The translations under genes were made by a program, and so were the position numbers. Below the pieces are notes generated by a model. It saw only the letters and a program-made list of their open reading frames with translations. It searched no databases and was not told where the DNA came from. Positions 203 to 44,592 of a stretch of DNA of 44,672 nt are shown in pieces. Source of the stretch: Candidatus Fraserbacteria bacterium (GTDB lineage Bacteria; Bipolaricaulota; Bipolaricaulia; RBG-16-55-9); NCBI GenBank assembly GCA_037442925.1, contig JBBIPG010000014.1, forward strand, positions 1 to 44,672, in the 5' to 3' direction. Every line of letters begins with the position of its first letter. Within the stretch, counting starts at the first letter, position 1.

Positions 203-3200
203 TCAAGAAGCGGAATCGGCTTTGCCATAGACCCACGCCTTGAAACGCGCGTCTTGACGAAGGAGGTCAAAGGCAGGGGTGTAGGCTGGACCGGATTTAA
301 GGTATTCAATGTGCCGTTCCTTGAGGTAGGGGAGCCCCCGCTCCAACCAACGGATGGCTTTATCGACCTCATTCAGACAAAGGTAGGATAAGATAATAGT
401 CTGATACATAGAGCCGTCCTCATGAGCCAAATCCAACGCTTGAGAGAAGAATTGTTCAGCTTGTTTACGTGAACTCTTGTAGTCATATATGCACCCTAGC
501 ATACCGTAGGAATTGGCGATGTAATGTGAGTCTGCAATAAGTGTACTGCTCTCAAGCTGCTTATCCGCATAGTGGAGGGCTTGGTCAAGCTCCCCCTTTC
601 TCATATAAGCATAAGTCAATCGGTTGTAAATCACGGTGATATGGGTGAGATTGGCTAATCGCTCATTGGCCTGGAGTGATCTATTCCAGGCTTCAATAGC
701 CCGATCTACTTGTCCCCCGTTATAGTAAGCAACTCCCAAGCTGAAGAAAGTGCTGCCAATCGAATGAGAATCGTTCGTCGTTTCCGTCAAACTCGCAGCT
801 TTAGCAAGATGCTCAACGGCCTTGTCGTAGTCTCCTTTGCCGGTATGGGCGTGCCCCAAAGTTGAAAGTATGAGCGCTTTCAGCGCATCATTAGGGGTTC
901 TCTCCAAGATCACTAGCGCGTGATTGCAATACCGAATCGCCTCATCGTATCGAAGGAGCCAATTGAGGCAACTACCGGCAGCGTCATAGATCTTCACTGC
1001 CGCTAGCGATTCTCTCTTCGGGCCCAGTTCCTCTAATGCTTTATTACAGTATGAGAGTGCCGTCTCAAACTCACGCTTGTAGTGATAGACGTTGGCAATC
1101 GCGCAATAAATGTCCGCCCGTTCCTCAGGGTCTTTGCAAAGCTCTAGCGCTTTCATGCTGTACTGCAAGCCCTCATCATGTTTATCCGTGAAACAACAGA
1201 CTTCCCCAAGGCCCTTGTAGACTTTCATCCGTCTCTGCTCGTCATCCAGGCGCTCGGCCAGCTCCAAAGCCCGACGATAGAAATGCAACGCTTCCTCTTT
1301 GGCATAGCTCTTAGACCAGACTCGTCTGCCAGCAAGCAGCGAGTAATCGAGTGCCTTGGACCACTCGCCTGCTTCGTAGAAGTGGTGAGCCATCTCCCCG
1401 AGGAAGGCCTCCATGTCCGAGGAGTGCAAGAGCAAGCGCTCTAGGGCATTGCCCACCTTGAGATGCAGCTGGCGTCGGCGCTCCGGGAGCAAGCCTTCAT
1501 AGATCACCTCTCGTATCAAGTCGTGCCGGAACTCGTAATGGCTTTCTTTCTCCACCATGAAATGGGTCTTGAGTAACTCTTCTAGACTTGCGATCAGATC
1601 CTCTTTTCGCCGCCCCACAGCCTCCTCGAGGAAGCCCGTATCGAAGGCGCGAGTCCGGGTTGAAACCAGATCCAGCAAGTCCCGGCTTGACCGTCGGAGG
1701 CGGCGAAGCCGCGTGAGCACCACAGCCTTCACCGTCTGCGGCACATGCTCCGCCCCAAGTTTCTCCGGCTCAATCTGCCATGCCCCCTCTTGGTCCAAAT
1801 ACAGCGTGCCGGATTCAATGAGAGATTTCATGAGTTCCAGAGCAAAAAACGCATTACCTTGAGATCTCTTATGGAGTTGTTGAGCCAGCTCTCGAGGTCC
1901 TGCGTCCACTTTGAGCATCCCGCTCACCAGTTGGCCCACTTCCTCATCACTGAAGGTCTTTAGCTCTAGTGTCCCGACCGATTCCTCCTGGAGCGGCCCA
2001 TGAATCAGCTCCCAGAGTAGATGCCCCTCATCCACCTCTTCCGCTCGGTATAGACCTAACAAGAGAATCTTCTCTTTACTCAGTTTGCGCATGAAGTAAT
2101 GGACGTACTGGAGTGTCGCGTCAGCGGCCCACTGCAAGTCATCTAAGACGAGTACGAGTGGTTTCTCTTGTGAGATGGCAACAAAGACTTGGCTAAGTGC
2201 CTCAAATAGGCGATTTCGCTCCTGCTCCGGCGACAGGAGCGGAGCCGAGGGTTTTACGTCGGGAAATCTCGCCATCAGCTCCGGGATCAGCTTCATCGCT
2301 TCGCTCAGCCATACGGGGGAGATGCTGTTCACAACGTCCAGCGGAGCTTGAGAGAAAGCTTGCCGTAGGATCTCAATCCAGGGTTGATAAGGCAATCGAC
2401 CCTCGACTTCGTAACAGCGCCCCGCCAGAGATAGGCTTCCTTGGCCGGTCACATATTGGATAAACTCTTGGGCCAGCCGCGTCTTGCCCACTCCCGCTTC
2501 GCCTCCCATAAAGAATGCCTGCCCCTCTCCCCGAACGGCAGCCTCCCAGGCAAGTGTAAGGTGCTCACATTCGCTCTCTCGCCCTACAAACGGCGCTCCC
2601 AGTTCCGGATAACGCTGGATCAATTCGCGCCTTCGCCTGGCCAACTCCCTGAACCGTGCCGCACTGGCCTGCTCTTCGATCTCGCGGAAGAGATCCTGCG
2701 TCTCCGGCAGAGGTTCTACGCCTAGCTCGTCTTTGAGGACTCGCTCACACGTGCGATACTGCTGGAGGGCAGCGTTGCGGTCCCCTATGGCATGGTACAG
2801 GTACATCAGCTGGCGGTGGATCTCTTCTTGCAAGGGGTTCTCAGACAGAATGAGCTTGGCATGGGAGATCGCCTGTTCATACTCCTTGAGCTCGGCATGG
2901 TGCACAACCAACTCTTGCAGGGCTTTTAGATACAGATTCTTGAGGTAATCTCGTTCTTCCAGGCACCAGTCGTCGTAGCAGCCTTCGAGAAAATCACCGC
3001 GATAGAGTGCGACAGCTTCTCTCAACAGTCGAATACGCTCGTCGCCTTTACAGTCTTCCGCTCCATTGATTCGCTGCTCGAACTCGTGAGCATCCACCCA
3101 ACAGGGAGCTTTGGGATTGAACTGAGCTGAAGTGCGGTTGAGCAGCAGAATCTCTCCCTTACAGCTTTCAAATGACCCCAGGGCTTTGTGCAAATCATGA

Positions 3201-3403
3201 AGAGCGTGTCGCAGGCTGAGGCGGGACTTCTCTTCGCTCGACTCGGACCAGAAGAGCCCGGCCAATCTCTCGCGAGCTTGCGGCTGGTCGCGGTGGAGCC
3301 ACAGATAAGCCAATAACTGCTCCACCTTGCGGGTGGCCAAGGCCACCGGCCGACCCTGTGGGTCAAAGATCTCGGGCTTGCCGAAGAGATGTATGCGTAA
3401 CAT
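203..3403 (-). CDS. SARP/BTAD-family transcriptional regulator with AAA ATPase and C-terminal TPR repeats
   Basis: N-terminal MLRIHLFG...LLAYLWL winged helix, BTAD domain (YRGDFLEG...NPLQEEIHRQLM), Walker A GEAGVGKT, Walker B LVLDDLQWAD, TPR-like C-terminus. Confidence 0.9.
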   Translation of the reverse strand: MLRIHLFGKPEIFDPQGRPVALATRKVEQLLAYLWLHRDQPQARERLAGLFWSESSEEKSRLSLRHALHDLHKALGSFESCKGEILLLNRTSAQFNPKAPCWVDAHEFEQRINGAEDCKGDERIRLLREAVALYRGDFLEGCYDDWCLEERDYLKNLYLKALQELVVHHAELKEYEQAISHAKLILSENPLQEEIHRQLMYLYHAIGDRNAALQQYRTCERVLKDELGVEPLPETQDLFREIEEQASAARFRELARRRRELIQRYPELGAPFVGRESECEHLTLAWEAAVRGEGQAFFMGGEAGVGKTRLAQEFIQYVTGQGSLSLAGRCYEVEGRLPYQPWIEILRQAFSQAPLDVVNSISPVWLSEAMKLIPELMARFPDVKPSAPLLSPEQERNRLFEALSQVFVAISQEKPLVLVLDDLQWAADATLQYVHYFMRKLSKEKILLLGLYRAEEVDEGHLLWELIHGPLQEESVGTLELKTFSDEEVGQLVSGMLKVDAGPRELAQQLHKRSQGNAFFALELMKSLIESGTLYLDQEGAWQIEPEKLGAEHVPQTVKAVVLTRLRRLRRSSRDLLDLVSTRTRAFDTGFLEEAVGRRKEDLIASLEELLKTHFMVEKESHYEFRHDLIREVIYEGLLPERRRQLHLKVGNALERLLLHSSDMEAFLGEMAHHFYEAGEWSKALDYSLLAGRRVWSKSYAKEEALHFYRRALELAERLDDEQRRMKVYKGLGEVCCFTDKHDEGLQYSMKALELCKDPEERADIYCAIANVYHYKREFETALSYCNKALEELGPKRESLAAVKIYDAAGSCLNWLLRYDEAIRYCNHALVILERTPNDALKALILSTLGHAHTGKGDYDKAVEHLAKAASLTETTNDSHSIGSTFFSLGVAYYNGGQVDRAIEAWNRSLQANERLANLTHITVIYNRLTYAYMRKGELDQALHYADKQLESSTLIADSHYIANSYGMLGCIYDYKSSRKQAEQFFSQALDLAHEDGSMYQTIILSYLCLNEVDKAIRWLERGLPYLKERHIEYLKSGPAYTPAFDLLRQDARFKAWVYGKADSAS

Positions 3404-3471
3404 GCGCCTGCCCTTTTCCGTCGATTTTTATTATAGCACGCGCGTCGATCAGCGGATAGGAAGCAAAGCTG

Positions 3472-3500
3472 TTGGCGGACTCAGCCAAATATGGTAGTTT
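3472..3500 (+). promoter_or_regulatory. sigma70 promoter for priA, probably leaderless
   Basis: TTGGCG-17 nt-TAGTTT with extended TG; GTG start 6 nt after the -10 box, no SD. Confidence 0.55.
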
Positions 3501-3506
3501 GAAGGC

Positions 3507-5699
3507 GTGGAGAAGCGCATCGCCGAAGTGGCCGTCCCTCGCGATATTGATCGGGTCTTCGATTATCTCATTCCTGAAAACTTGCAAGAGCAAGCGGACA
3601 TTGGGATGCGGGTTCGGGTTCCCTTTCGCGCCGAAACGCTCACCGGGTTTATAACAACTATCAAGCCCGAGACTTCTTACGCAGGGAAACTGCAAGAGCT
3701 AAGCGCCCTTCTCGATCCCTATCCCGTTGTGGATGAGATCCATATGCGCCTCGCGCATTGGATCAGCGAACGCTATCTATGCCCTCTGGGACTGGTCTTG
3801 CAAGCGATGGTCCCTTCGCTCTTGAGGGCTCGAACTCCGCGCGTCCGCGCCTACGTGCACCTTAAGACCAGCTTGGCAGAGACGCTTCGCTGGATTGACA
3901 TGCTATCCACGACAGCTCCTCAACAAGCGGCGCTCCTCCAAGCACTCCTCGCTCAGGGCCCCGAACCCGCTATGAATGAATTACTCGAACGCGTGGGTTG
4001 CTCCACGGCTCCGCTGCAGTCCCTGGTGGAACGGGAGTTGATCGCCATCGAGAGACGCCCTGTAGCTCCAGCGCGCATCTCTTCGGAGTTTCATGAGGAC
4101 GCTATGGAGATCTCCCTCACCGCGGCGCAGCAGATCTGTCTCGAAGAGATCCGTGTGGGTCTTAGGCGTGGGAGCGGAAGATACTTGCTCCACGGGGTCA
4201 ACGCCAGCGGGAAGACAGAGATCTATCTCCAAAGCGTTCAACAAGCGCTGGAGCTGGGCAAGCAGGCTATTGTGATCGTGCCAGAGATCTCACTGACCCC
4301 ACAGCTGATTGCACGCTTTCGCTCGCGATTTCAAGAGAAGATCGCCGTCTATCATAGCCAACTCACGGAATCCCAACGGGCACGCGAGTGGCAACGACTC
4401 AAAGAGGGAGAAGCCCAAGTCGCCATCGGCGTGCGCTCTGCCATCTTCGCCCCGCTGGATCGCCTGGGGCTCATTGTCGTCGATGAGGAACACGAACCCA
4501 CATTCAAGCAGGACGATCCGGCACCACGCTATCACGCTCGAGATGTGGCCTTTAGACGGGCAGAGTTGTCTTCGGCCGTCGTAGTGTTGGGGAGTGCTAC
4601 TCCATCCATAGAGAGCTACTGGCGGGCCCGGCGAGGGGGGCTTCAGCTGTTGGAGCTTACGGAACGCGTGGTGAGTGGAGCGGCTCCGGAGACGACTGTT
4701 GTGGATCTACGGGGTGAGGATGTCTTGCTAAGCCCCGTACTCAAACAGAGAATCGCACGGCGTTTGAGGTCTGGTGAACAGGCTCTATTGCTACTCAATC
4801 TGCGCGGTTTCGCGCGTTGTGCGCTCTGCCGGGCTTGTCGTGCCACTCAGAAGTGCCCGCGATGCCAGATCGCTCTTGTGTATCATCTCAAAGAACAACG
4901 GTTGCGATGCCATTATTGCGGTCATACGTATCCCGTCAGTCGGTGTCGTTCTTGTGGTTCCGCAGATCTACGATTCATCGGCGCTGGAACGGAGCAAGCG
5001 GAGCTCGTGCTGCGTGAGACGTTTCCGGGGGCGACAATCGCCCGCATGGATTCGGACGTCGTGCATCGTGGTGAACATGGAGCCATACTCGAGCAGTTTC
5101 GTCGTGAGAAGATTCATATTCTTCTGGGCACACAAATGATTGGTTTGGGACTCGATTTCCCCAACGTGACGCTCGTGGGAGTTCTGTCGGCGGACACGCT
5201 GCTGGATCTGCCAGATTTTCGGGCGGGGGAGCGGACGTTTCAACTCATCAGTCAAGCTGTAGGCCGGGCCGGGCGTGGAGAGAAGCCAGGCGAAGTCATC
5301 ATCCAGACGAACCATCCAGAACACTACGCCATCGCCCAAGCCGCTCAGCAAGACTATCAGGCTTTTTATGACGAAGAACTGATCTTCCGCAAGACGCTCA
5401 ATTACCCACCCTTCTCGCATCTGATCAAACTCACCTGTGAAGATCGAAAGGAGGAACAGGCTCAGCAGAATGCCGGGTCGCTCGGCCAAGCCTTGCTGGC
5501 CTCTCCTGTGAAGGGTCTCGAAGTGCTCGGACCTTTTAAGGCCTTCCCGTATCGCGTGCGGGGGAGTTTCCGTTGGCAATTGGTTCTCAAAACGAAAGAT
5601 GTGCTAGCTGCCAACGCTTTAGTGCGCGAGATGGTGCAAAGCACAAGGCTCTCAGGACAAATCAAAGCCGATGTGGACCCACAGAGTTTACTGGTATAA
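3507..5699 (+). CDS. priA: Primosomal protein N' (replication restart helicase)
   Basis: N-terminal FDYLIP...GMRVRVPF, GVNASGKTE, VPEISLTPQ, DEEH, four CxxC Zn knuckles, QAVGRAGR, C-terminal DVDP. Confidence 0.97.
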   Translation: MEKRIAEVAVPRDIDRVFDYLIPENLQEQADIGMRVRVPFRAETLTGFITTIKPETSYAGKLQELSALLDPYPVVDEIHMRLAHWISERYLCPLGLVLQAMVPSLLRARTPRVRAYVHLKTSLAETLRWIDMLSTTAPQQAALLQALLAQGPEPAMNELLERVGCSTAPLQSLVERELIAIERRPVAPARISSEFHEDAMEISLTAAQQICLEEIRVGLRRGSGRYLLHGVNASGKTEIYLQSVQQALELGKQAIVIVPEISLTPQLIARFRSRFQEKIAVYHSQLTESQRAREWQRLKEGEAQVAIGVRSAIFAPLDRLGLIVVDEEHEPTFKQDDPAPRYHARDVAFRRAELSSAVVVLGSATPSIESYWRARRGGLQLLELTERVVSGAAPETTVVDLRGEDVLLSPVLKQRIARRLRSGEQALLLLNLRGFARCALCRACRATQKCPRCQIALVYHLKEQRLRCHYCGHTYPVSRCRSCGSADLRFIGAGTEQAELVLRETFPGATIARMDSDVVHRGEHGAILEQFRREKIHILLGTQMIGLGLDFPNVTLVGVLSADTLLDLPDFRAGERTFQLISQAVGRAGRGEKPGEVIIQTNHPEHYAIAQAAQQDYQAFYDEELIFRKTLNYPPFSHLIKLTCEDRKEEQAQQNAGSLGQALLASPVKGLEVLGPFKAFPYRVRGSFRWQLVLKTKDVLAANALVREMVQSTRLSGQIKADVDPQSLLV

Positions 5700-36575: not shown

Positions 36576-37271
36576 TTACACAATGGGGACCAGGAGCTTC
36601 AGGAGCAGCATAAAGCCTAGCCCCAAGAGCAATGAGAAGATCACTTTGAAGTTGAAGCGCCGATGAGCATCGGGCAGAAGATCGCTGGCGCCGATGTACA
36701 AGAAATCTCCCGCAATGAAGGCCAGGGCAATATGCAAGAGATCTTCCGGGATCAACCCTGCCAGGAGTGCTCCTATGGGATAGAGTGCTCCGGCAAGACC
36801 CAAGGTGAATAAGATCTTGCCCCGACTCCAGAGAGCTTGCCTCATGATGAAGGTGGACGTGATTCCCTGAGGGATCTCATGGAGCACGACGGCCAGGGTG
36901 ATCGCCAATCCCAGGAAGGGTTCGATGAGATATCCTGCGGCGATCCCGATGCCGTCGATCACGTTGTCAAGCGCCATGCCGAACACGGCCACGGGTCCGA
37001 CCTGATGAGCCTCACACTCGCTCTCTCCGCAGGCGTGGATCATCATGACCTTTTCCAACAGGTAGAACGTGAGAAACCCAATAGCAACGTACATATAGTC
37101 GGTTTCCATGCGAACTTCTGGAAGGACATCGAAGAAGGTCACAGCAAGCAGAACACCTGCCGCGAAGGCGATGACGTAGCGAGGTTCCAGTCGCTCCGAT
37201 TTCCAGCCCAGGGCGAGCCAACCTGAAACGAGGTCGGAGAGACCCGCGATGAGGGCGTAAAGGAATTGCAT
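36576..37271 (-). CDS. ZIP-family metal transporter
   Basis: AFAAGVLL, LDNVIDG, LHEIPQG, YIGASDLLP. Confidence 0.9.
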   Translation of the reverse strand: MQFLYALIAGLSDLVSGWLALGWKSERLEPRYVIAFAAGVLLAVTFFDVLPEVRMETDYMYVAIGFLTFYLLEKVMMIHACGESECEAHQVGPVAVFGMALDNVIDGIGIAAGYLIEPFLGLAITLAVVLHEIPQGITSTFIMRQALWSRGKILFTLGLAGALYPIGALLAGLIPEDLLHIALAFIAGDFLYIGASDLLPDAHRRFNFKVIFSLLLGLGFMLLLKLLVPIV

Positions 37272-37277
37272 ACGGCA

Positions 37278-37306
37278 AGCTTAGAGAGGGTAGGGCAAGC
37301 TGTCAA
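37278..37306 (-). promoter_or_regulatory. sigma70 promoter for a leaderless ZIP gene
   Basis: Minus strand TTGACA-17 nt-TAAGCT, ATG 6 nt downstream, no SD. Confidence 0.7.
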
Positions 37307-37317
37307 GCCAGCGGATC

Positions 37318-37542
37318 TTAGATCTCGAAGTCATCCAGGCGGAAACCCTCCGTACTCTGCAGCACCTTCTTGACGCGGAGTTCGCCCTCTTCCAGTCGTT
37401 TCTTGAGTCGATCGGCCACGCGGACGCCCTCCTCGAAGAGTTTCAAAGACTCCTCCAGTGAGACGTCCTCTCCTTCCAGTGATTTCACGATCTGTTCGAG
37501 TCGGGTTAGGGCTTCTTCGACGCTCAGTTCTTTCTCCGGCAT
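37318..37542 (-). CDS. xseB: Exodeoxyribonuclease VII small subunit (start uncertain)
   Basis: EEALTRLEQIVKSLE...SLEESLKLFEEG. Confidence 0.9.
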   Translation of the reverse strand: MPEKELSVEEALTRLEQIVKSLEGEDVSLEESLKLFEEGVRVADRLKKRLEEGELRVKKVLQSTEGFRLDDFEI

Positions 37543-37761
37543 CACGCTGGCTCCTGTGGGATCATGCTTCTTCATAGCATGCTTGGGCTTCTTTGGCAAA
37601 TGCGCTTCTCTGTGTGTAATGATCGTGGTTGTATGAACGTGTTAATGACCGATTCCATCAGGGCTTGACTTCTTGGGCAAGATGTGTTATACGTTAATTG
37701 CTTTACGGATCTTATGTAGCTAAAGCATAAGAGACTACAATCTCTAAGGAGGTCATAAACA

Positions 37762-37917
37762 ATGTTGAAGTGGGGTACAGTAGCGGAGTCCAATCAGGCG
37801 GCGGAGCGGATGAACGGCTTTCTCGCGAAGATCGTAGGGAGCAAGGCGCTTTACCTACTGGTCGTGCTGGCGTCGTTCGTGTTGCTCAGTGGGGCTGGCG
37901 ACAAATTTGGTGGCTGA
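37762..37917 (+). CDS. Unannotated 51-aa peptide, putative signalling-peptide precursor
   Basis: TAAGGAGGT RBS 8 nt before ATG; MLKWGTVAESNQAAERMNGFLAKIVGSKALYLLVVLASFVLLSGAGDKFGG-stop; not in the supplied ORF track. Confidence 0.8.
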   Translation: MLKWGTVAESNQAAERMNGFLAKIVGSKALYLLVVLASFVLLSGAGDKFGG

Positions 37918-37933
37918 AGGGATAAGATGTAAG

Positions 37934-37972
37934 AGAAGAGGGAGAAGTCAGACATTGATTTTTCCCTCTTCT
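37934..37972 (+). terminator. Stem-loop between the peptide ORF and HD-GYP gene 1
   Basis: AGAAGAGGGAGAAGTCA-gacat-TGATTTTTCCCTCTTCT, 17-bp stem including two G-U pairs. Confidence 0.65.
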
Positions 37973-37988
37973 GTCTTCTAAATTTTAT

Positions 37989-39338
37989 ATGAAACTCTCG
38001 CTGAGTGCGAAACTCTATGTGTGGCTAGTAACCTTCGCTACACTCTCTGTACTTGCCTACTTTGTATCCGAGATCACCCAACTACGACAAGGTCTATCTA
38101 TACCAACGGATGATTTCCTGTGGACTTTGCTTATCTTCTCAGTTCTCGCCTTCTTCGCTCAAATCTACGAGGTTGAGCTCGTTTATAAGAGGATGACATC
38201 AACAGCTATATCTATTTGCTTGGCAACTGTCCTTCTCGGTGGATTGCCTCTCGCTATTGCAGTAACCCTTATTAGTACGCTTCTTGCAGAGCTTATTCTA
38301 CGATGGAGTAGACTGTCGGAAGGATTCATCGACCTCATTTGGCGTGTCGCCTTCAACACAGGTCAGTTTGTTCTTTCTGCTTTCGCAGCTGTTCTGGCAT
38401 TCAAACTATTAGGTGGACATCCATTGCTGCTCCGTGCTGAAAGGACATCAGAGTCATTAGTCTTCTATAACCAGTTGATTCCGGCCTTAGGAGCTTTCGT
38501 GACTTTCGCGCTCGTTAATACGTCATTTGTTTCCGGTATGCTGACTTTGTTTGAAAAGACCGCTTTCACGTACCACCTGCGCTTTAACTTGAAGCACCTT
38601 ATGGTGCAAATTCTCTCCTTAGGTGTGTTGGGCATCCTTATGGCAGTAGTTTACGCTCAGTCGCCCTGGAATCTCTTGCTCGTATTGGTCCCGTTAGGTC
38701 TTGTGCACGTCTCGCTCCGCAATTACATGAAGTTACGCCATGAAGCCCAAAAGACCTTTGAACACATAGCTGACTTGCTAAACGAACGGGATTCCTACAC
38801 TGCTAGACATTCCAACGAAACCGCGGAGCTGGCTGAGAAGATTGCAAGGAAACTTAAACTTCACCAAGATGAGATTGAAAAGGTCAAATCAGCTGCTATC
38901 ATCCATGACATCGGAAAGGTGATGGTCCCAGATCACATCCTTCAGAAGCCCGACTCTCTCACAGAAGAAGAATGGCGAATCATGCGGATGCACCCCGATA
39001 TAGGAGCCGATCTCCTCAAGGAGCTAGAGATGTACAGGGATATTGTCGACGTTATCCGCCATGAACATGAGCATTGGGATGGCGGCGGGTATCCAAAGGG
39101 CCTTAAAGGTAATGAGATTCCCATCGGCTCCCGTATTGTTGCTGCTGCTGACATATACAATGCATTGACAACTGATCGACCATATAGGCGGGCGTATTCT
39201 CACGAGGAGGCTCTCAAGAGAATGTGTGAGATGAGCGGCGTAGAGCTAGACCCTCAAGTTGTAGACGCCCTCCTAAGCGCATTGGAGGACACTCAAGCTC
39301 AGTCGAGTTCTCCACCCAAGAAGACTGCCACCGCCTAG
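37989..39338 (+). CDS. Membrane-anchored HD-GYP cyclic-dinucleotide phosphodiesterase 1
   Basis: N-terminal multi-TM sensor; RDSYT..HS, HDIGK, HPDIG, WDGGGYP, RIVAAAD, DRPYR. Confidence 0.92.
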   Translation: MKLSLSAKLYVWLVTFATLSVLAYFVSEITQLRQGLSIPTDDFLWTLLIFSVLAFFAQIYEVELVYKRMTSTAISICLATVLLGGLPLAIAVTLISTLLAELILRWSRLSEGFIDLIWRVAFNTGQFVLSAFAAVLAFKLLGGHPLLLRAERTSESLVFYNQLIPALGAFVTFALVNTSFVSGMLTLFEKTAFTYHLRFNLKHLMVQILSLGVLGILMAVVYAQSPWNLLLVLVPLGLVHVSLRNYMKLRHEAQKTFEHIADLLNERDSYTARHSNETAELAEKIARKLKLHQDEIEKVKSAAIIHDIGKVMVPDHILQKPDSLTEEEWRIMRMHPDIGADLLKELEMYRDIVDVIRHEHEHWDGGGYPKGLKGNEIPIGSRIVAAADIYNALTTDRPYRRAYSHEEALKRMCEMSGVELDPQVVDALLSALEDTQAQSSSPPKKTATA

Positions 39339-39386
39339 AAAAGCCTCACAAACTTGCCAAATGAAGCTTACACCAGCGTGAAACAG

Positions 39387-39414
39387 TTGACTTTCCCATT
39401 TGTACTCCTATAAT
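39387..39414 (+). promoter_or_regulatory. Internal sigma70 promoter for HD-GYP gene 2
   Basis: TTGACT-16 nt-TATAAT, ATG 9 nt downstream, no SD. Confidence 0.55.
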
Positions 39415-39423
39415 AAGCTTCAA

Positions 39424-40761
39424 ATGCAACTTTCGCTTAGTGCAAAGATATATATAGGTTTAATCTCAGTACTTACGCTCTTTGCCGTCGCATACTTTAC
39501 TCCTCGGATTCTCTGGCTGTCGCAAGATCTGACTATCGCACAAGCTATCAGCATCTTCGCTGTACTCGGATTCTTGACTCAAATCTACGAGGTCGAACTG
39601 ATCTACGGCAGACGTACTTCAACGATGGCTGCGATTAACATGGCAGTTATCCTGCTGGGTGGAATACCGCTTGCAATAGCAGTCACCCTTCTGGCTACTC
39701 TGATGGCAGAAATCATACTACGTTGGGGCAAACTTGCAACAGGTTTCATGAACTTTGCCTACCGAGTCTGTTTCAATACGGGTCAACTTGTTCTTTCCAC
39801 GCTGATCGGCGCTTTAACTTTCGACTTGCTTGGTGGAAGACCGTTCCTACTCAATAACGACCTTATCCAAGATGATCTTGTATTCCTTAATCAAATGACC
39901 TCAGCTGGCGGTGCCTTTGCGGCACATATAATCACAAATACATCATTGGTTTCTGGAATTCTCACGCTCTTCGAAAAGACGGCCTTCACCTATCACTTAT
40001 GGTTTAGTTTAAGGCACTTCTTGCTGCAAGTTCTGTCATTAGGCATCTTAGGTATTCTTCTGGCTCGGATTTATGCACTTTCGCCTTGGAACCTCTTGGT
40101 AATCTTGATTCCTTTAGGTTTAGTGCACATCTCACTTCGCAACTACATGAAGCTGCGTCACCAAGCCCAAAAGACCTTCGAGCGCGTGGCCCAACTGCTC
40201 AGCGACCGCGATCCCTATACCTACGAACATTCCAGCGAAGTCGCTGACCTCGCCGAGAAGATCGCCCGTAAACTCAAGCTTCCTCAAGAACAGATCGAGC
40301 ACGTCAGATCCGCCGCCGCCATCCACGATATAGGTAAACTGGGTGTTCCTGACCGAATCTTGCACAAGCCCGGCCCCCTTACCGACGAAGAATGGGTCAT
40401 CATGAAAAAACACCCTGACATCGGCGCTAATCTACTCAAAGACCTCGAAATCGATGCCTACATCATCGACATCGTCCGCCATGAACACGAACGCTGGGAT
40501 GGCTCCGGCTATCCAGGCGGCCTTAAGGGCGAGCGAATTCCCATGGGAGCCCGGATCGTCGCTGTGGCCGATGTCTATAACGCCCTCACTACCGATCGGC
40601 CCTACCGCCCCGCCTACTCCCACGAAGAAGCCCTCAGGATACTCCAAAAGATGCGCGGCACCGAACTCGATCCCCAGGTTGTGGATGCGCTCTTCAGCGT
40701 GCTCGAAGACACCTCCACATTATTAGCAACTCATACTCTGATAAGGGCGGAGGCTCACTGA
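39424..40761 (+). CDS. Membrane-anchored HD-GYP cyclic-dinucleotide phosphodiesterase 2 (paralog of 1)
   Basis: Start MQLSLSAKIY parallels MKLSLSAKLY; HDIGK, WDGSGYP, DRPYR. Confidence 0.92.
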   Translation: MQLSLSAKIYIGLISVLTLFAVAYFTPRILWLSQDLTIAQAISIFAVLGFLTQIYEVELIYGRRTSTMAAINMAVILLGGIPLAIAVTLLATLMAEIILRWGKLATGFMNFAYRVCFNTGQLVLSTLIGALTFDLLGGRPFLLNNDLIQDDLVFLNQMTSAGGAFAAHIITNTSLVSGILTLFEKTAFTYHLWFSLRHFLLQVLSLGILGILLARIYALSPWNLLVILIPLGLVHISLRNYMKLRHQAQKTFERVAQLLSDRDPYTYEHSSEVADLAEKIARKLKLPQEQIEHVRSAAAIHDIGKLGVPDRILHKPGPLTDEEWVIMKKHPDIGANLLKDLEIDAYIIDIVRHEHERWDGSGYPGGLKGERIPMGARIVAVADVYNALTTDRPYRPAYSHEEALRILQKMRGTELDPQVVDALFSVLEDTSTLLATHTLIRAEAH

Positions 40762-40763
40762 AC

Positions 40764-41312
40764 ATGTTGCTGCTCTGGGCCTTGCCAATTGGCATCTTGA
40801 TCGGCTACATCCGCGGCGGACGCCTTTCCCACCTGGCAAAACTTGAACTGCGCGGCGCTTGGCTGGTTCTCCTCGCTCTTGCGATCCAGTTGCTCATCTT
40901 CCCGCTGGGATCATCCAGGAAACCCATCATTTCGTTCGCAACAGAGTACTTCCATCTCGCTTCCTACGCTCTTCTTGTGATCTTTGTGGTTCTTAACTGG
41001 CGGGAATGGGGGATTCTCGCGATGGGCGTGGGCATGGCACTTAATCTGATCGTGATCACAGCCAACGGGGGGTATATGCCCACACAGCCAGAGCTGCTAG
41101 AAGCCGCAGGCCGCTGGGAAGCAGCTGCCAAACTTCGTGAAACCTGCACCTACGCTAACAACACCTGTATGGGCCCCGAAACTCCTCTCTGGTTCTTGGC
41201 AGATATCTTCTACGTGCCGGCTGGGGTGCCGTTTGCGAACGTCTTTAGCGTGGGGGATCTCCTGCTTGCTTTGGGATTGATCGTCTTCCTTCAAGCCAGA
41301 ATGCGGCCCTGA
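40764..41312 (+). CDS. DUF5317-family membrane protein
   Basis: GYIRGGRLSHL, NLIVITANGGYMP, LADIF, NVFSVGD; family recognised from motifs. Confidence 0.8.
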   Translation: MLLLWALPIGILIGYIRGGRLSHLAKLELRGAWLVLLALAIQLLIFPLGSSRKPIISFATEYFHLASYALLVIFVVLNWREWGILAMGVGMALNLIVITANGGYMPTQPELLEAAGRWEAAAKLRETCTYANNTCMGPETPLWFLADIFYVPAGVPFANVFSVGDLLLALGLIVFLQARMRP

Positions 41313-41361
41313 GCAGGATATGCACGCCAGGGCCGCTCAAAACTCTATATTCAGCAGGCTC

Positions 41362-41682
41362 TTACGTGTGGTGATTCTGCTGCTGGACGGCCAGGGCCCG
41401 CTGAACGTCCTTCTCTTCCGCCAGGCCTTCTTGGACTAGGATCTCCCCAATGCGCCGCTTGTTGCCTCCCTTCTTCTGCTGCTCGAGGGCCTTCTCCAGG
41501 TCTTTGAAAGAGACCCTCCCCATGTCGGCCAGAATCTCGCCCAGTTTCTTCCGCCCCTCGAAGTATTGCTCCAAAACCGTGAGGATCACGGCGCTACGAC
41601 TCTTGCGATCCCGATACGCCTTCTCATCGATCTTGTCAATGAGATACTGGTCCGCCTTGGTGTAGTAGATTGTCATCTGCAC
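41362..41682 (-). CDS. Ribbon-helix-helix protein fused to a tandem MshEN c-di-GMP-binding motif
   Basis: GGAGGAGGAG RBS before GTG; N-terminal MQMTIYYT strand and RKSRSAVILTVLEQYF helix; two 24-aa motifs KLGEILADMGRVSFKDLEKALEQQ and RIGEILVQEGLAEEKDVQRALAVQ. Confidence 0.8.
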   Translation of the reverse strand: MQMTIYYTKADQYLIDKIDEKAYRDRKSRSAVILTVLEQYFEGRKKLGEILADMGRVSFKDLEKALEQQKKGGNKRRIGEILVQEGLAEEKDVQRALAVQQQNHHT

Positions 41683-41709
41683 GGTCTATCTCCTCCTCCC
41701 GATTCCCTC

Positions 41710-41770
41710 GACTCACATGAGCGATTCTATGAGTCTACCCCAAGGTAGCACACTTTAGATAAAAATTCAA
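41710..41770 (-). promoter_or_regulatory. Promoter and inverted repeat upstream of the RHH-MshEN gene
   Basis: Minus strand TTGAAT-17-TACCTT with extended TG; GACTCA-N14-TGAGTC (41710-41735) directly after the predicted start site. Confidence 0.5.
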
Positions 41771-41906
41771 GGTGAACCCACATGCAAACTAAGAGCTATC
41801 GTGCATGAAACAGACAAGCGCGCCCTAACCCGCAGACAAAGTTCCTATGGACAAGGTTCTTGCAGGCCTATAGTAATACACGTCATATGGGAGGGGAGTG
41901 AGCCCG

Positions 41907-42479
41907 ATGCGGCTAAAGAATATGCGTCTCATCGTTGCATTGATTGGATTGTCTATTCTTCTGGTTTCCACAGCGCCTGCAACGGCCCAAGCACAGCTCG
42001 TCAACCCACAGCGGGGTATAGGTCTGTCGGTCACGTTTCCATTTGGCTTCCTGCCAACCGTGCCTTTGACGAATACGGCCACCTTCTTCTTGAACTTGCT
42101 GGCCCAAGGACAGATCAGTGGAGAACTCGTGTATCAAACGGAACTGCGCTTCTTCATCGACGCTCTTGGCTTCCAGACGGCTTTGACCTCGATACGGGAA
42201 TCCGTGCTCATCTTGTTCACTCCCTCTCCGGCGTCCTTCTACATTGGAGCCGGGCTGGGGGCCTTCCCCATCCGCGTCCCGGCCGTGCCATCGGATGGCT
42301 TCTTGCTCTCGTTCCTCATCCGAACCGGAGTGGAAGTGCAGGTCTTCCCCTTGGGGCTCTTCCTCGATATCACGTATGAGACGATGCCTCAGCCGTTTGC
42401 CGATATCGCTGGTGGCACGTTCACACCGGCGACGATCTCAGCCCTGCAGCTCAGTTTTGGAGCTCTGATCCACTTCTAA
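41907..42479 (+). CDS. Exported protein, probable outer-membrane beta-barrel
   Basis: Signal peptide ending A-x-A, alternating hydrophobic strands, C-terminal LQLSFGALIHF with terminal Phe. Confidence 0.65.
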   Translation: MRLKNMRLIVALIGLSILLVSTAPATAQAQLVNPQRGIGLSVTFPFGFLPTVPLTNTATFFLNLLAQGQISGELVYQTELRFFIDALGFQTALTSIRESVLILFTPSPASFYIGAGLGAFPIRVPAVPSDGFLLSFLIRTGVEVQVFPLGLFLDITYETMPQPFADIAGGTFTPATISALQLSFGALIHF

Positions 42480-42531
42480 ATTCATAGCGCCGAGCGAATA
42501 GCTATCCGTAGATATATCCCTTTTATCCCCC

Positions 42532-42560
42532 TTGACATATTAACAATCTTATGCTAGTAT
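42532..42560 (+). promoter_or_regulatory. sigma70 promoter of the lipoprotein gene
   Basis: TTGACA-17 nt-TAGTAT with extended TG. Confidence 0.75.
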
Positions 42561-42588
42561 ATCCCTGCGATCAAAAGGGGGATAGACC

Positions 42589-44592
42589 ATGAAAAAACTT
42601 CACAGGCTCGGTTTCGGCGGACTCCTCCTGCTCCTCGGAATTCTCACCGGATGTTCCCAGCTCTTTCCCAACGATCCACTGAAAGACTCCTCAGACACGC
42701 TAGAACTCTCAGGCACATCCGCTTGGCTCATCGCTGCTCAAGGTCAGGGTGGATCTCCCAACTGTGTGAGGGATCTCGCTCCTGGCCAGGCCAAGAAACT
42801 GGCAGAGAAGGCCCTCAAGGACAAACGAGAGATCCAATTACTCCAGCAGGCTCTCGAACGCCGGGGCAAGAAGCTCGTACTCAGCAAGGCCCACGGCTGC
42901 CAGGTGAAGGGCAAGCTTGGCGGCCAAGGACTCAGCACTCAACAGGAAGCCGCTACAGAAGCCACCCTGGTGGAAGTGCCTGCGGGCTCGGATGCGGCTC
43001 TGTATTTGTTGGAGAACGAGACGGTGGACGAAGGCAACTACTGGGCCGCGCTCAGGGAATCCGCAGAAGGTGGCGAGACGCTGGTCCATATTGAAGTCGG
43101 CCTAGCAAGCGATACCGGGGTGCAAGGGTTGAGCACGGAGCCTGGGGAGGCGAAGCTCTTCCTCCCCGATGAGCTGGGCACGCAAGAGGTGGCTTCAGAT
43201 CTTGAACAGCTCTTGGCAGAATCGGCCACCATGAGTGCGGGTGTAAGAGCCCTGCAGACGGAAGCGCTAGACTGGGCGAATGCGGAAGTAGTCTTGGATA
43301 AGACTTCTGTGACAGTCAACGCCGATGGGTCGGAGGAGATGGAGGCATTAGTGGTTGTGCCCCAGATGGAGTCGACAACTCAACAGCTGTGGAGCAGGAG
43401 CCGGCCTTCTATCGATGTGGAGCGGGCCACACATGTGAAGGTGACGGTGAGGAGAACACCGCCGTCGCCGAGCAACCCGCGACCCCAGCTGCAGGTGGTC
43501 AGACCCACTCCAGAGCAGCCAGTGGTGCTGCCCATAGTGAAGAAGGGAGTTGAGCTGAAGCCAGCGTTCCAGTATTGTCCGTATCGGCATTACGGACGGT
43601 TGAGCTCGTTCAGCAGGGTGATGTGCCAGGATTCTTGGAAGCAGTGGTATGGAAAGCAGTGGGCTAGTAACGCTGTTCAGAGCAAGGTACTTCAAGCATC
43701 GGGAGCTGCCGCGAGTTCGGATACGTATAACATCACCTATGCGAGGGATGGTAAACGTGGGATCGATCTTCTTGCTGCAGGCTTCGACAACTTGAACCCG
43801 TCAGACCTGCAAAGGATGTTCGATTATGTTGCTACTACCAACCAAGCGAGCATTCTAGTACAACTGCCGTCTGAGGTCCTGCAGCGTTGGGAGCAAGCCC
43901 AACCTCTGTTTAACGGGATCTCAGACGAGCAGTTCACGACCTGGTTAAGAGCCTTGGCCGAAGCCATGCAGCAAGGGACATTTGACCAAGTATATGACCA
44001 GCTGCTCACTCAGGGTATAACTCAGCTAGAAGAGGCCATTATGGTTCTAAATGGCACAAATGATCGGAACATCGCAAAGAGCATCATTAGGGAGATGGCA
44101 CAGAAGCTACCAAAACCCCGAACTTCTCTCACGGCCACACTGTTTCCATCGAACGTGGAGCAGGCGATCATCGACTATATGAACTTGGCAAGGGACCACC
44201 TGGAACGTGTATTCTTGAATCTCCAAGCGAGTCGTGAGATAAGTGAGTTACTGTTAACAGGATTCGGCTTAGGCAAGATCGTGGAGAAGATCTGCGGAAC
44301 AGTTTCTCCAGTCTGTAGCAAATTCGTAGAGGATACTCTCTCCGCAATACTACCGAAACAACCGTATGCAGTCATAAATGAACTCATGAATCTATGGGAT
44401 AGAGTAATCTCGAATCTCGAACTTGTTGACCCCACGGGGAATGTGGCCTTAAAGTTCTCCGATGCAATGAATACGATCATTCAATGGTTTAAGTTCGGAA
44501 ACTTGACTTTCTGGAGACTTGGGCCAGAGCAACCGGGTCACCAGCCAGCCGAGCCAGGCCTGACAGAGGACAAACTAGAAGCGGTCTCATAA
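42589..44592 (+). CDS. Large lipoprotein of unknown function, probably truncated at the 3' end by an IS insertion
   Basis: MKK plus hydrophobic segment and LTG-C lipobox; the stop codon lies within the putative IS end. Confidence 0.8.
   Translation: MKKLHRLGFGGLLLLLGILTGCSQLFPNDPLKDSSDTLELSGTSAWLIAAQGQGGSPNCVRDLAPGQAKKLAEKALKDKREIQLLQQALERRGKKLVLSKAHGCQVKGKLGGQGLSTQQEAATEATLVEVPAGSDAALYLLENETVDEGNYWAALRESAEGGETLVHIEVGLASDTGVQGLSTEPGEAKLFLPDELGTQEVASDLEQLLAESATMSAGVRALQTEALDWANAEVVLDKTSVTVNADGSEEMEALVVVPQMESTTQQLWSRSRPSIDVERATHVKVTVRRTPPSPSNPRPQLQVVRPTPEQPVVLPIVKKGVELKPAFQYCPYRHYGRLSSFSRVMCQDSWKQWYGKQWASNAVQSKVLQASGAAASSDTYNITYARDGKRGIDLLAAGFDNLNPSDLQRMFDYVATTNQASILVQLPSEVLQRWEQAQPLFNGISDEQFTTWLRALAEAMQQGTFDQVYDQLLTQGITQLEEAIMVLNGTNDRNIAKSIIREMAQKLPKPRTSLTATLFPSNVEQAIIDYMNLARDHLERVFLNLQASREISELLLTGFGLGKIVEKICGTVSPVCSKFVEDTLSAILPKQPYAVINELMNLWDRVISNLELVDPTGNVALKFSDAMNTIIQWFKFGNLTFWRLGPEQPGHQPAEPGLTEDKLEAVS

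Follow-up and report, generated by a model that had tools for sequence, protein, structure and literature searches.

An LspA-like aspartate-dyad core predicted in DUF5317, a protein encoded with a micro-protein and membrane HD-GYP phosphodiesterases: a new setting and a putative peptidase role

The DUF5317 gene and its conserved gene unit

The DNA analyzed here, called the window below, is a stretch of 44,672 nucleotides from a Candidatus Fraserbacteria bacterium (assembly GCA_037442925.1, contig JBBIPG010000014.1). The gene under study, at 40764..41312 on the + strand, is an intact open reading frame (ORF) of 182 codons whose product belongs to the family DUF5317 (Pfam PF17248): the match had an E value of 1.9e-36 and a score of 125.8 bits, above the Pfam gathering cut-off of 25, and residues 26-177 were aligned with positions 1-151 of the 151-position profile, which is full model coverage. 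Judged from its sequence and its predicted model, this protein carries an aspartate-dyad core like that of the lipoprotein signal peptidase LspA in a new setting, and its role as a peptidase is putative. An earlier note on this DNA had proposed that DUF5317 is an LspA-like intramembrane aspartic peptidase that matures a peptide encoded upstream.

The DUF5317 gene is the last of four genes, all on the + strand. It is preceded by a micro-protein gene (37762-37917) and by the genes of two membrane HD-GYP proteins, one of 449 amino acids at 37989-39338 (PF13487, HD_5, E 1.8e-42) and one of 453 amino acids, counted from the TTG at 39400, at 39400-40761 (PF13487, E 2.4e-46). The ATG of DUF5317 lies 3 nt past the stop codon of the second HD-GYP gene. 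The two HD-GYP paralogues are 62% identical, and their alignment makes the ATG at 39424 the likely start of the second one. A promoter-like site (TTGACT, 16 nt, TATAAT; 11/12) is located at 39387-39414 (+), just 5' of the second HD-GYP gene. The pair represents the sole HD_5 genes of the genome, and DUF5317 is single-copy.

The gene order was compared in 80 loci, namely the window and 79 genome loci retrieved with NGGYMP as the search pattern. An HD-GYP gene was found directly upstream of DUF5317, on the same strand, in 66/80 loci from many phyla. Upstream DNA of 600 nt or more was available for 76 loci, so that these are also 66/76. The HD-GYP gene was downstream in two more loci and absent in eight, and a coarser pick, which took the nearest long ORF, gave an HD-GYP gene in 55 of 75 loci. 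The gaps between the two genes were mostly -4 to +60 nt. The order micro-protein, HD-GYP, DUF5317 held in most of the 49 loci in which the micro-protein was detected, and three of these loci were rearranged. In L065 (5001-7078) the order was DUF5317, micro-protein, HD-GYP; in L061 two micro-proteins were followed by DUF5317, with an HD-GYP homologue further downstream; and in L059 (4027-5522) the micro-protein and DUF5317 were found with no HD-GYP gene within 5 kb and with a PMT-like glycosyltransferase downstream. The genes 3' of DUF5317 (ADP-forming acetyl-CoA synthetase, MutS2, TsaD, LysRS and others) were not counted in the unit because they vary between loci.

The HD residues (H309, D310) and the GYP residues (G370, Y371, P372) were invariant in 53 partner proteins. 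Six partner proteins matched Pfam MASE9. The N-terminal domains of the HD-GYP pair of the window gave no MASE9 match at E ≤ 10, and that of the second paralogue aligned with the MASE9-positive partner of locus L077 (E 1e-12, 33% identity over 138 amino acids). The micro-protein, a MASE9-related HD-GYP protein (a phosphodiesterase of cyclic di-GMP, c-di-GMP) and DUF5317 as the last gene form a conserved unit.

Invariant residues of DUF5317 and comparison with LspA

The motifs named in the earlier note were all present in DUF5317 as it described them: N94 with N101-G102-G103 (NLIVITANGG), LADIF at 145-149, and NVFSVGD at 159-165 just before the last transmembrane helix. D147 of LADIF (codon 41202..41204, +) and D165 of FSVGD (codon 41256..41258, +, first turn of the last helix) are the sole two aspartates of the protein and lie 18 residues apart. 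The motif N101-G-G-Y-M-P106 (codons 41064..41081, +) is located at the outer end of helix 4.

Conservation was examined in three sets of sequences. In 61/61 homologues, with identity down to 37%, the residues Q42, N78, G90, N94, N101, G103, M105, P106, D147, S162, G164 and D165 were invariant. In the window and the 79 genome loci, D147, S162, G164, D165, Q42, N78, G90 and N94 were present in 80/80, and the invariance of NGGYMP among these loci is circular because it was the retrieval pattern. An unbiased HMMER scan of 1.84 billion 50%-identity cluster representatives placed 3197 clusters in the DUF5317 family at E ≤ 1e-3. From the 150 DUF5317 matches listed, 142 were aligned and the window was added, giving a set of 143; four sequences shorter than 150 amino acids and four others were left out, and fusions were trimmed to their first 230 residues. 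In this set N78, G90, N94, N101, P106 and D147 were present in 143/143 sequences, and D165, S162, G164, M105 and G103 in 142/143. The conservation of the Asp pair is far beyond chance, and the two aspartates, whose non-conservation the earlier note had named as evidence against its proposal, were retained almost without exception. From the types of residue, the invariant polar set appears typical of a catalytic or ion site.

The structure of DUF5317 was modeled with AlphaFold2 from 61 homologues, with a mean predicted local distance difference test score (pLDDT) of 93.9 and a predicted template modeling score (pTM) of 0.85. The model had five helices (2-16, 32-45, 60-77, 82-100 and 163-179) and an outer loop of about 60 residues (101-162) with short helices and strands. 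Since the last helix spans 163-179, FSVGD is placed at its start. Across the 143 sequences, loops 17-31 and 78-81 and the C-terminal tail were rich in Lys and Arg, and loops 46-59 and 101-162 were sparse in them. Under the positive-inside rule, this distribution would put the N-terminus on the outer side, together with the large loop that carries the Asp pair.

The DUF5317 sequences were then compared with LspA. A canonical lspA gene (PF01252, E 7.5e-38) is present on another contig of the same genome, and 53 LspA sequences were aligned and numbered according to this protein. The residues D30, K34, N61, F66, G111, A112, N115, R119, V125, D127, F142, N143, A145 and D146 were invariant, and the LspA motifs quoted in the earlier note (V125 and D127; F142, N143, A145 and D146) are thus correct. 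The spacing of 18 between the two aspartates of DUF5317 equals that in S. aureus LspA (6ryo/6ryp, SEQRES 142 and 160) and is 19 in the organism's own LspA. Around the second aspartate LspA has F-N-x-A-D-x-x-I-x-x-G and DUF5317 has F-S-V-G-D-x-x-[LI]-x-x-G, so that the two-Asp motif of LspA would have an analogue in DUF5317 with Ser for Asn and Gly for Ala. The profile alignment program hhalign paired vFSVGDvLialG of DUF5317 with vFNvADsAItiG of LspA, with a probability of 10% and a score of 26.2.

Intramembrane aspartyl proteases of the GxGD type (presenilin, SPP, prepilin peptidase A24) are defined by a G-x-G-D motif. This identity was rejected for DUF5317, in which the motif is S-V-G-D with an invariant S162 in place of Gly and for which no such Pfam family was found at E ≤ 0.01.

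Structural comparison gave different results for the whole protein and for its core. Foldseek with the whole model against the PDB did not list LspA (best E 1.1), and a wide structural scan with it found no LspA among the best 50 rows, the top entries being helical hairpins aligned with residues 29-80 (top Z 6.1). A comparison of the whole model with 217 PDB chains gave none at Z ≥ 5 and no LspA, and an ESM Atlas search with DUF5317 gave no usable match. The core (residues 56-182) was modeled alone from 79 sequences (pLDDT 93.0), and the comparison set for this model consisted of 48,161 representative chains. Among them S. aureus LspA (6ryp_A) took rank 18, with Z 4.9, a root-mean-square deviation of 2.7 Å, 82/127 residues aligned and 18% identity, all of which are overall alignment figures only. 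The match spans residues 5-127 of the core model and 63-153 of the chain. Among the best 50 rows it had the longest alignment and the highest identity; the others aligned 37-76 residues, mostly in the last two helices. Because LspA had been named as the target beforehand, a match at this rank is improbable by luck. The local resemblance of the modeled core to LspA helices 2-4 is real at the level of the prediction, and the whole protein differs. The fold check against LspA suggested in the earlier note therefore came out in part: LspA was missing from the searches with the five-helix model as a whole and was matched by the core.

Several results weigh against the LspA-like reading. A Z of 4.9 falls among the values that the comparison tool itself describes as common when the model is helical, 17 unrelated chains equal or exceed the score of 6ryp_A, and no further LspA entry was among the best 50 rows. 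Foldseek with the core model found nothing (best E 1.4). The hhalign score of 26.2 stood against 25.3 and 24.2 for controls with one partner reversed; with the broader 143-row DUF5317 profile the real score was 26.7 and those of the reversed controls 24.4 and 25.9; and the LspA profile scored 26.9 against an unrelated MASE9-type membrane profile. Because reversed and unrelated controls score alike, the similarity is not significant, and the profile-profile check that the earlier note had proposed did not bear out a relationship with LspA. The alignments also gave no DUF5317 counterpart of the invariant Arg of G-N-x-x-D-R, the invariant Lys of helix 1 and the N-x-G-x-A-F strand of LspA. In addition, the Pfam scan found no PF01252 match in DUF5317 at E ≤ 0.01, and a search of PDB sequences with the DUF5317 profile returned no LspA and only a gentisate dioxygenase (E 1.2).

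By its sequence, DUF5317 is not an LspA and not a member of family A8. If DUF5317 were a true signal peptidase II paralogue, highly diverged and still acting on lipoproteins, this would explain the LspA-resembling motif, its spacing and the match of the core to 6ryp_A; however, the genome has its canonical lspA, PF01252 is not matched, hhalign stays at the level of its controls, the number of helices and the extramembrane parts differ, and the lipobox Cys is found in 0/52 of the partner peptides described below. We regard this explanation as scarcely credible, and a role of DUF5317 as a true lipoprotein signal peptidase was rejected on the resident lspA gene, the missing PF01252 match and the Cys-less peptides. 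What stands of the LspA-like peptidase idea is the invariant aspartates, their spacing of 18, their predicted outer face and the core match; homology and family membership did not stand, and the five-helix model showed no beta-cradle between the first helices. In the reading that we favor, DUF5317 would either be related to the catalytic core of LspA or have converged on it.

The micro-protein and the proposed mechanism

The micro-protein gene at 37762..37917 (+) encodes 51 amino acids, with AAGGAGG 7 nt before its ATG. The product has an N-terminal M(L)KW, a basic N-flank, one hydrophobic helix and the end L42-S43-G44-A45-G-D-K48-F49-G-G, and it is the sole copy in its genome (E 3.8e-15). The small ORFs from the 80 loci were searched by tblastn and by three rounds of hidden Markov model (HMM) search, and homologues were found in 49/80 loci. 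All of them are encoded on the same strand as DUF5317, and outside L059, L061 and L065 they stand just upstream of the HD-GYP gene. The upstream peptide of the earlier note is thus a real conserved partner, although two HD-GYP genes lie between it and DUF5317. In Pfam and NCBIfam no real family was found for the micro-protein, the best match being that of one member to DUF6112 (E 0.0057).

Tandem copies, from 2 to 6, were present in 14 of the 49 loci. Arrays of 3-6 near-identical micro-protein genes precede the HD-GYP gene in L056 (2113-3269), L043 (2815-3594) and L046 (3131-3595), and three copies in L046 encode the same 45 residues. Most loci without a match had too little upstream DNA. Despite enough room, no micro-protein was detected at E ≤ 0.01 in L002, L004, L005, L020, L057, L063, L069, L071, L073, L075, L076, L078, L079 and L080. 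Co-occurrence was also tallied by hand in 61 genomes sampled from the phylum, which are incomplete assemblies and, where related, not independent. The two genes were found together in 44 of them, DUF5317 without the micro-protein in 8, the micro-protein without DUF5317 in 2, and neither gene in 7. For about 34 of the genomes with both, the best micro-protein match was 1.4-3.1 kb upstream of DUF5317 on the same contig and strand.

The consensus of 52 micro-protein rows consists of M-K-W (in at least 90%), a basic flank (net +2.7), one helix and [LVIA]-[LSMAV]-[GASC]-[AEQ]-x-x-K-W. The Lys (K48 in the window) was present in 52/52 and the Trp of column 49 in 49/52, and 50/52 had 1-3 residues after K-W. 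By the positive-inside rule, the [small]-A-x-x-K-W end would face outward. The L-S-G-A of the window (residues 42-45), which the earlier note had called lipobox-like, falls in the conserved [LVIA]-[LSMAV]-[GASC]-[AEQ] at the outer end of the helix. Positions -3 to -1 of a lipobox are mimicked by this motif, with Gly, Ala, Ser or Cys at -1 in 52/52. At +1 the residue was Ala in 43, Glu in 7, Gln in 2 and Cys in none, so the micro-proteins are not lipoproteins and the lipobox likeness ends before the lipidated position.

A strong 17-bp hairpin at 37934..37972 (+) separates the stop codon of the micro-protein from the first HD-GYP gene. The fold of 37910-37995 had a free energy of -28.4 kcal/mol (z -4.1), and 0/200 shuffled sequences were as stable. 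The hairpin is a possible attenuator or terminator, and the micro-protein might be made in excess over the HD-GYP enzymes. An Rfam scan of 37200-42700 found no riboswitch at E ≤ 1, and only a below-threshold miRNA model was placed at the hairpin (E 0.23).

Taken with the gene unit, these data make it likely that DUF5317 handles peptides, and possibly cuts them, as a new component of a hitherto undescribed signaling unit of bacteria. In the scheme that we tentatively favor, DUF5317 would bind the micro-protein at its outward-facing [small]-A-x-x-K-W end, and the pair D147/D165 would cut the micro-protein after the small residue (G44 in the window) at the outer face of the membrane, in the manner of LspA. 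The cut would free a K-W tail of 6-8 residues, and the helix would stay in the membrane in trimmed form; either the tail or the trimmed helix could be the in-membrane ligand of the MASE9-related domain or could remove that ligand. The state of this domain would in turn set HD-GYP activity and the level of c-di-GMP. We hold this putative sequence of docking, cutting and altered MASE9-related input to have somewhat less than an even chance of being right. Because 44 of the 61 genomes carry both genes and L059 keeps the pair without HD-GYP, the partnership of micro-protein and DUF5317 was counted in favor of the scheme. The broader proposal, that a new family of LspA-like intramembrane aspartyl peptidases cuts a Cys-less "lipobox" in many phyla and that the K-W peptide or the trimmed helix is the MASE9 ligand, is unlikely to hold in full.

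A complex of the MASE9-related domain (residues 1-260), the micro-protein and DUF5317 was also predicted and scored 0.60, 0.65 and 0.66. Controls in which DUF5317, the partner chain, was replaced scored 0.00 and 0.02, and a control in which chain 1 was replaced scored 0.50. Because an unrelated chain 1 still reached this value, the prediction speaks neither for nor against binding.

Domain fusions were scanned in 30 long DUF5317 representatives. DUF5317 was fused to MFS in 8/30, to TPR in 2/30, to DUF2510 in 2/30, to SPOR in 1/30, to a TrkH fragment in 1/30 and to PAS-GAF-GGDEF in 1/30; 15/30 had no added Pfam domain. The GGDEF fusion (P0242, 927 amino acids) is the gene at 1277-4060 of locus L015 and stands directly after a membrane HD-GYP gene. 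Since it adjoins this gene, a c-di-GMP maker and a c-di-GMP breaker are each tied to one membrane module there. The MFS fusions fit a process-and-export role of DUF5317 and resemble the peptidase-exporter fusions of peptide-signal systems.

Two observations add to the points against peptide cutting: the GGDEF fusion fits an input-domain role, and conservation extends to both ends of the micro-protein, each with a nearby K-W motif, which fits a stably anchored permanent subunit. Both would fit a DUF5317 that is a non-catalytic receptor or scaffold. It would bind the outer K-W end of the micro-protein, with salt bridges between its Asp pair and the Lys, the resulting state would be passed laterally within the membrane to the MASE9-related domain or to a fused GGDEF or MFS, and nothing would be cut. 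Such a receptor would place the K48 and W49 positions of the micro-protein opposite two invariant aspartates. The overlapping or near-touching HD-GYP-DUF5317 junctions of many loci (gaps of -4, -1 and 0) would fit a stoichiometric complex, and binding of the MASE9 ligand within the membrane is proposed by Galperin and Chou (bioRxiv 10.1101/2021.11.05.467447). However, a set of six to eight polar residues so strictly kept in over 3000 clusters is commoner where residues do chemistry than where a surface docks a peptide, the LspA-like spacing and the core match would be coincidence, and arrays of up to 6 micro-protein genes are odd for a 1:1 subunit. We consider the receptor the main and a serious rival, somewhat less probable than the favored scheme.

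The absence of the micro-protein from some genomes bears on another explanation, in which the Asn/Asp cluster of DUF5317 would sense or conduct something other than the micro-protein, for instance a cation, a proton or the head group of a lipid, and DUF5317 would report this to HD-GYP, with the micro-protein acting separately on MASE9. The 8/61 genomes with DUF5317 and no detected micro-protein, the at least 13 loci with enough upstream DNA and no match, the fusions to MFS and the TrkH fragment, and the invariant N, D, S and Q, which would lie in or close to the outer leaflet like residues that bind ions or head groups, would all fit. Against this, the two genes occur together in 44/61 genomes, L059 keeps both without HD-GYP, and the cases of absence are weak because micro-proteins of 26-32 amino acids are easily missed. 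This explanation seems to us improbable.

Two other genes of the window were noted. A convergent gene at 41362..41682 (-), next to DUF5317, encodes a protein of 105 amino acids whose residues 45-99 match NCBIfam NF053729, an MshE-N-related motif for c-di-GMP binding, at 58 bits (cut-off 38), and in L017 a similarly placed neighbor of DUF5317 matches RHH_1. Because of these two matches, the product of 41362-41682 is a candidate, as its sequence suggests, for a small DNA-binding protein that responds to c-di-GMP and is encoded next to the phosphodiesterase unit. The gene at 42589-44592 (+) encodes a 667-amino-acid protein without a family and with a lipoprotein signal ending in L-T-G-C, which indicates that the organism makes ordinary Cys-lipobox lipoproteins for its true LspA.

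Comparison with known systems

LspA (MEROPS A8, PF01252) has solved structures from S. aureus (6ryo/6ryp) and P. aeruginosa (5dir/6fms/9emz), which were used for comparison. Its fold consists of four helices with a periplasmic beta-cradle and helix. Like LspA, DUF5317 would hold an invariant Asp pair at the outer membrane boundary, the second Asp being part of F-[NS]-x-[AG]-D where the last helix begins, and a G-x-x-x-N in the preceding helix (G90...N94). Unlike LspA, it has five helices in the model, lacks a beta-cradle or N-x-G-x-A-F strand after the first helix and contains an insert of about 45 residues (101-146) before the first Asp. The micro-protein, as a candidate substrate, resembles LspA substrates in a hydrophobic helix that ends in L-x-[small] and differs from them in the Ala, Glu or Gln at the position of the lipidated Cys. 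The genomic context of DUF5317 is c-di-GMP signaling, not lipoprotein maturation.

The HD-GYP pair of the window is like the MASE9-HD-GYP phosphodiesterases, such as TM1467 of T. maritima and HdgA/HdgB of S. venezuelae, in that both consist of membrane HD-GYP proteins with intact HD and GYP residues. The membrane domain of the pair aligns with MASE9-positive partners; the N-terminal domain in the window does not itself reach the Pfam MASE9 model. DUF5317 was detected in T. maritima and T. thermophilus. According to Al-Bassam et al. (2018, PMC6205966), Streptomyces has a tandem membrane-bound HD-GYP pair in an hdgA-hdgB operon, and the S. venezuelae hdgA/hdgB mutants had no developmental phenotype, for which the authors suggest that activating signals were missing. 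By Galperin and Chou (bioRxiv 10.1101/2021.11.05.467447) the input signal or ligand of MASE9-type HD-GYP enzymes is given as unknown; the main text of this preprint has no mention of DUF5317 and uses "operon" once, in an unrelated passage on D. vulgaris. A full-text literature search by the name DUF5317 and the accession PF17248 found no publication, and searches of the literature on MASE9, on HdgA/HdgB and on HD-GYP with small membrane proteins, micropeptides or intramembrane aspartyl proteases turned up neither DUF5317 nor the micro-protein.

The micro-protein and DUF5317 with its LspA-like Asp pair represent a concrete candidate for the input of MASE9-type HD-GYP enzymes. If cleavage proves true, DUF5317 would join A8 and the GxGD enzymes as a third lineage of membrane peptidases with an Asp dyad, and the unit would be a new route from peptide to c-di-GMP signaling.

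A comparable arrangement is that of Agr signaling, in which the precursor AgrD, the membrane endopeptidase AgrB (a cysteine peptidase) and the membrane receptor AgrC act together with a histidine kinase output. As an analogy of working only, the unit would be similar: one operon encodes a small peptide, a polytopic membrane protein as its putative processing enzyme and a membrane receptor. The two have no relation in sequence or fold, and the output here is a c-di-GMP phosphodiesterase, not a histidine kinase.

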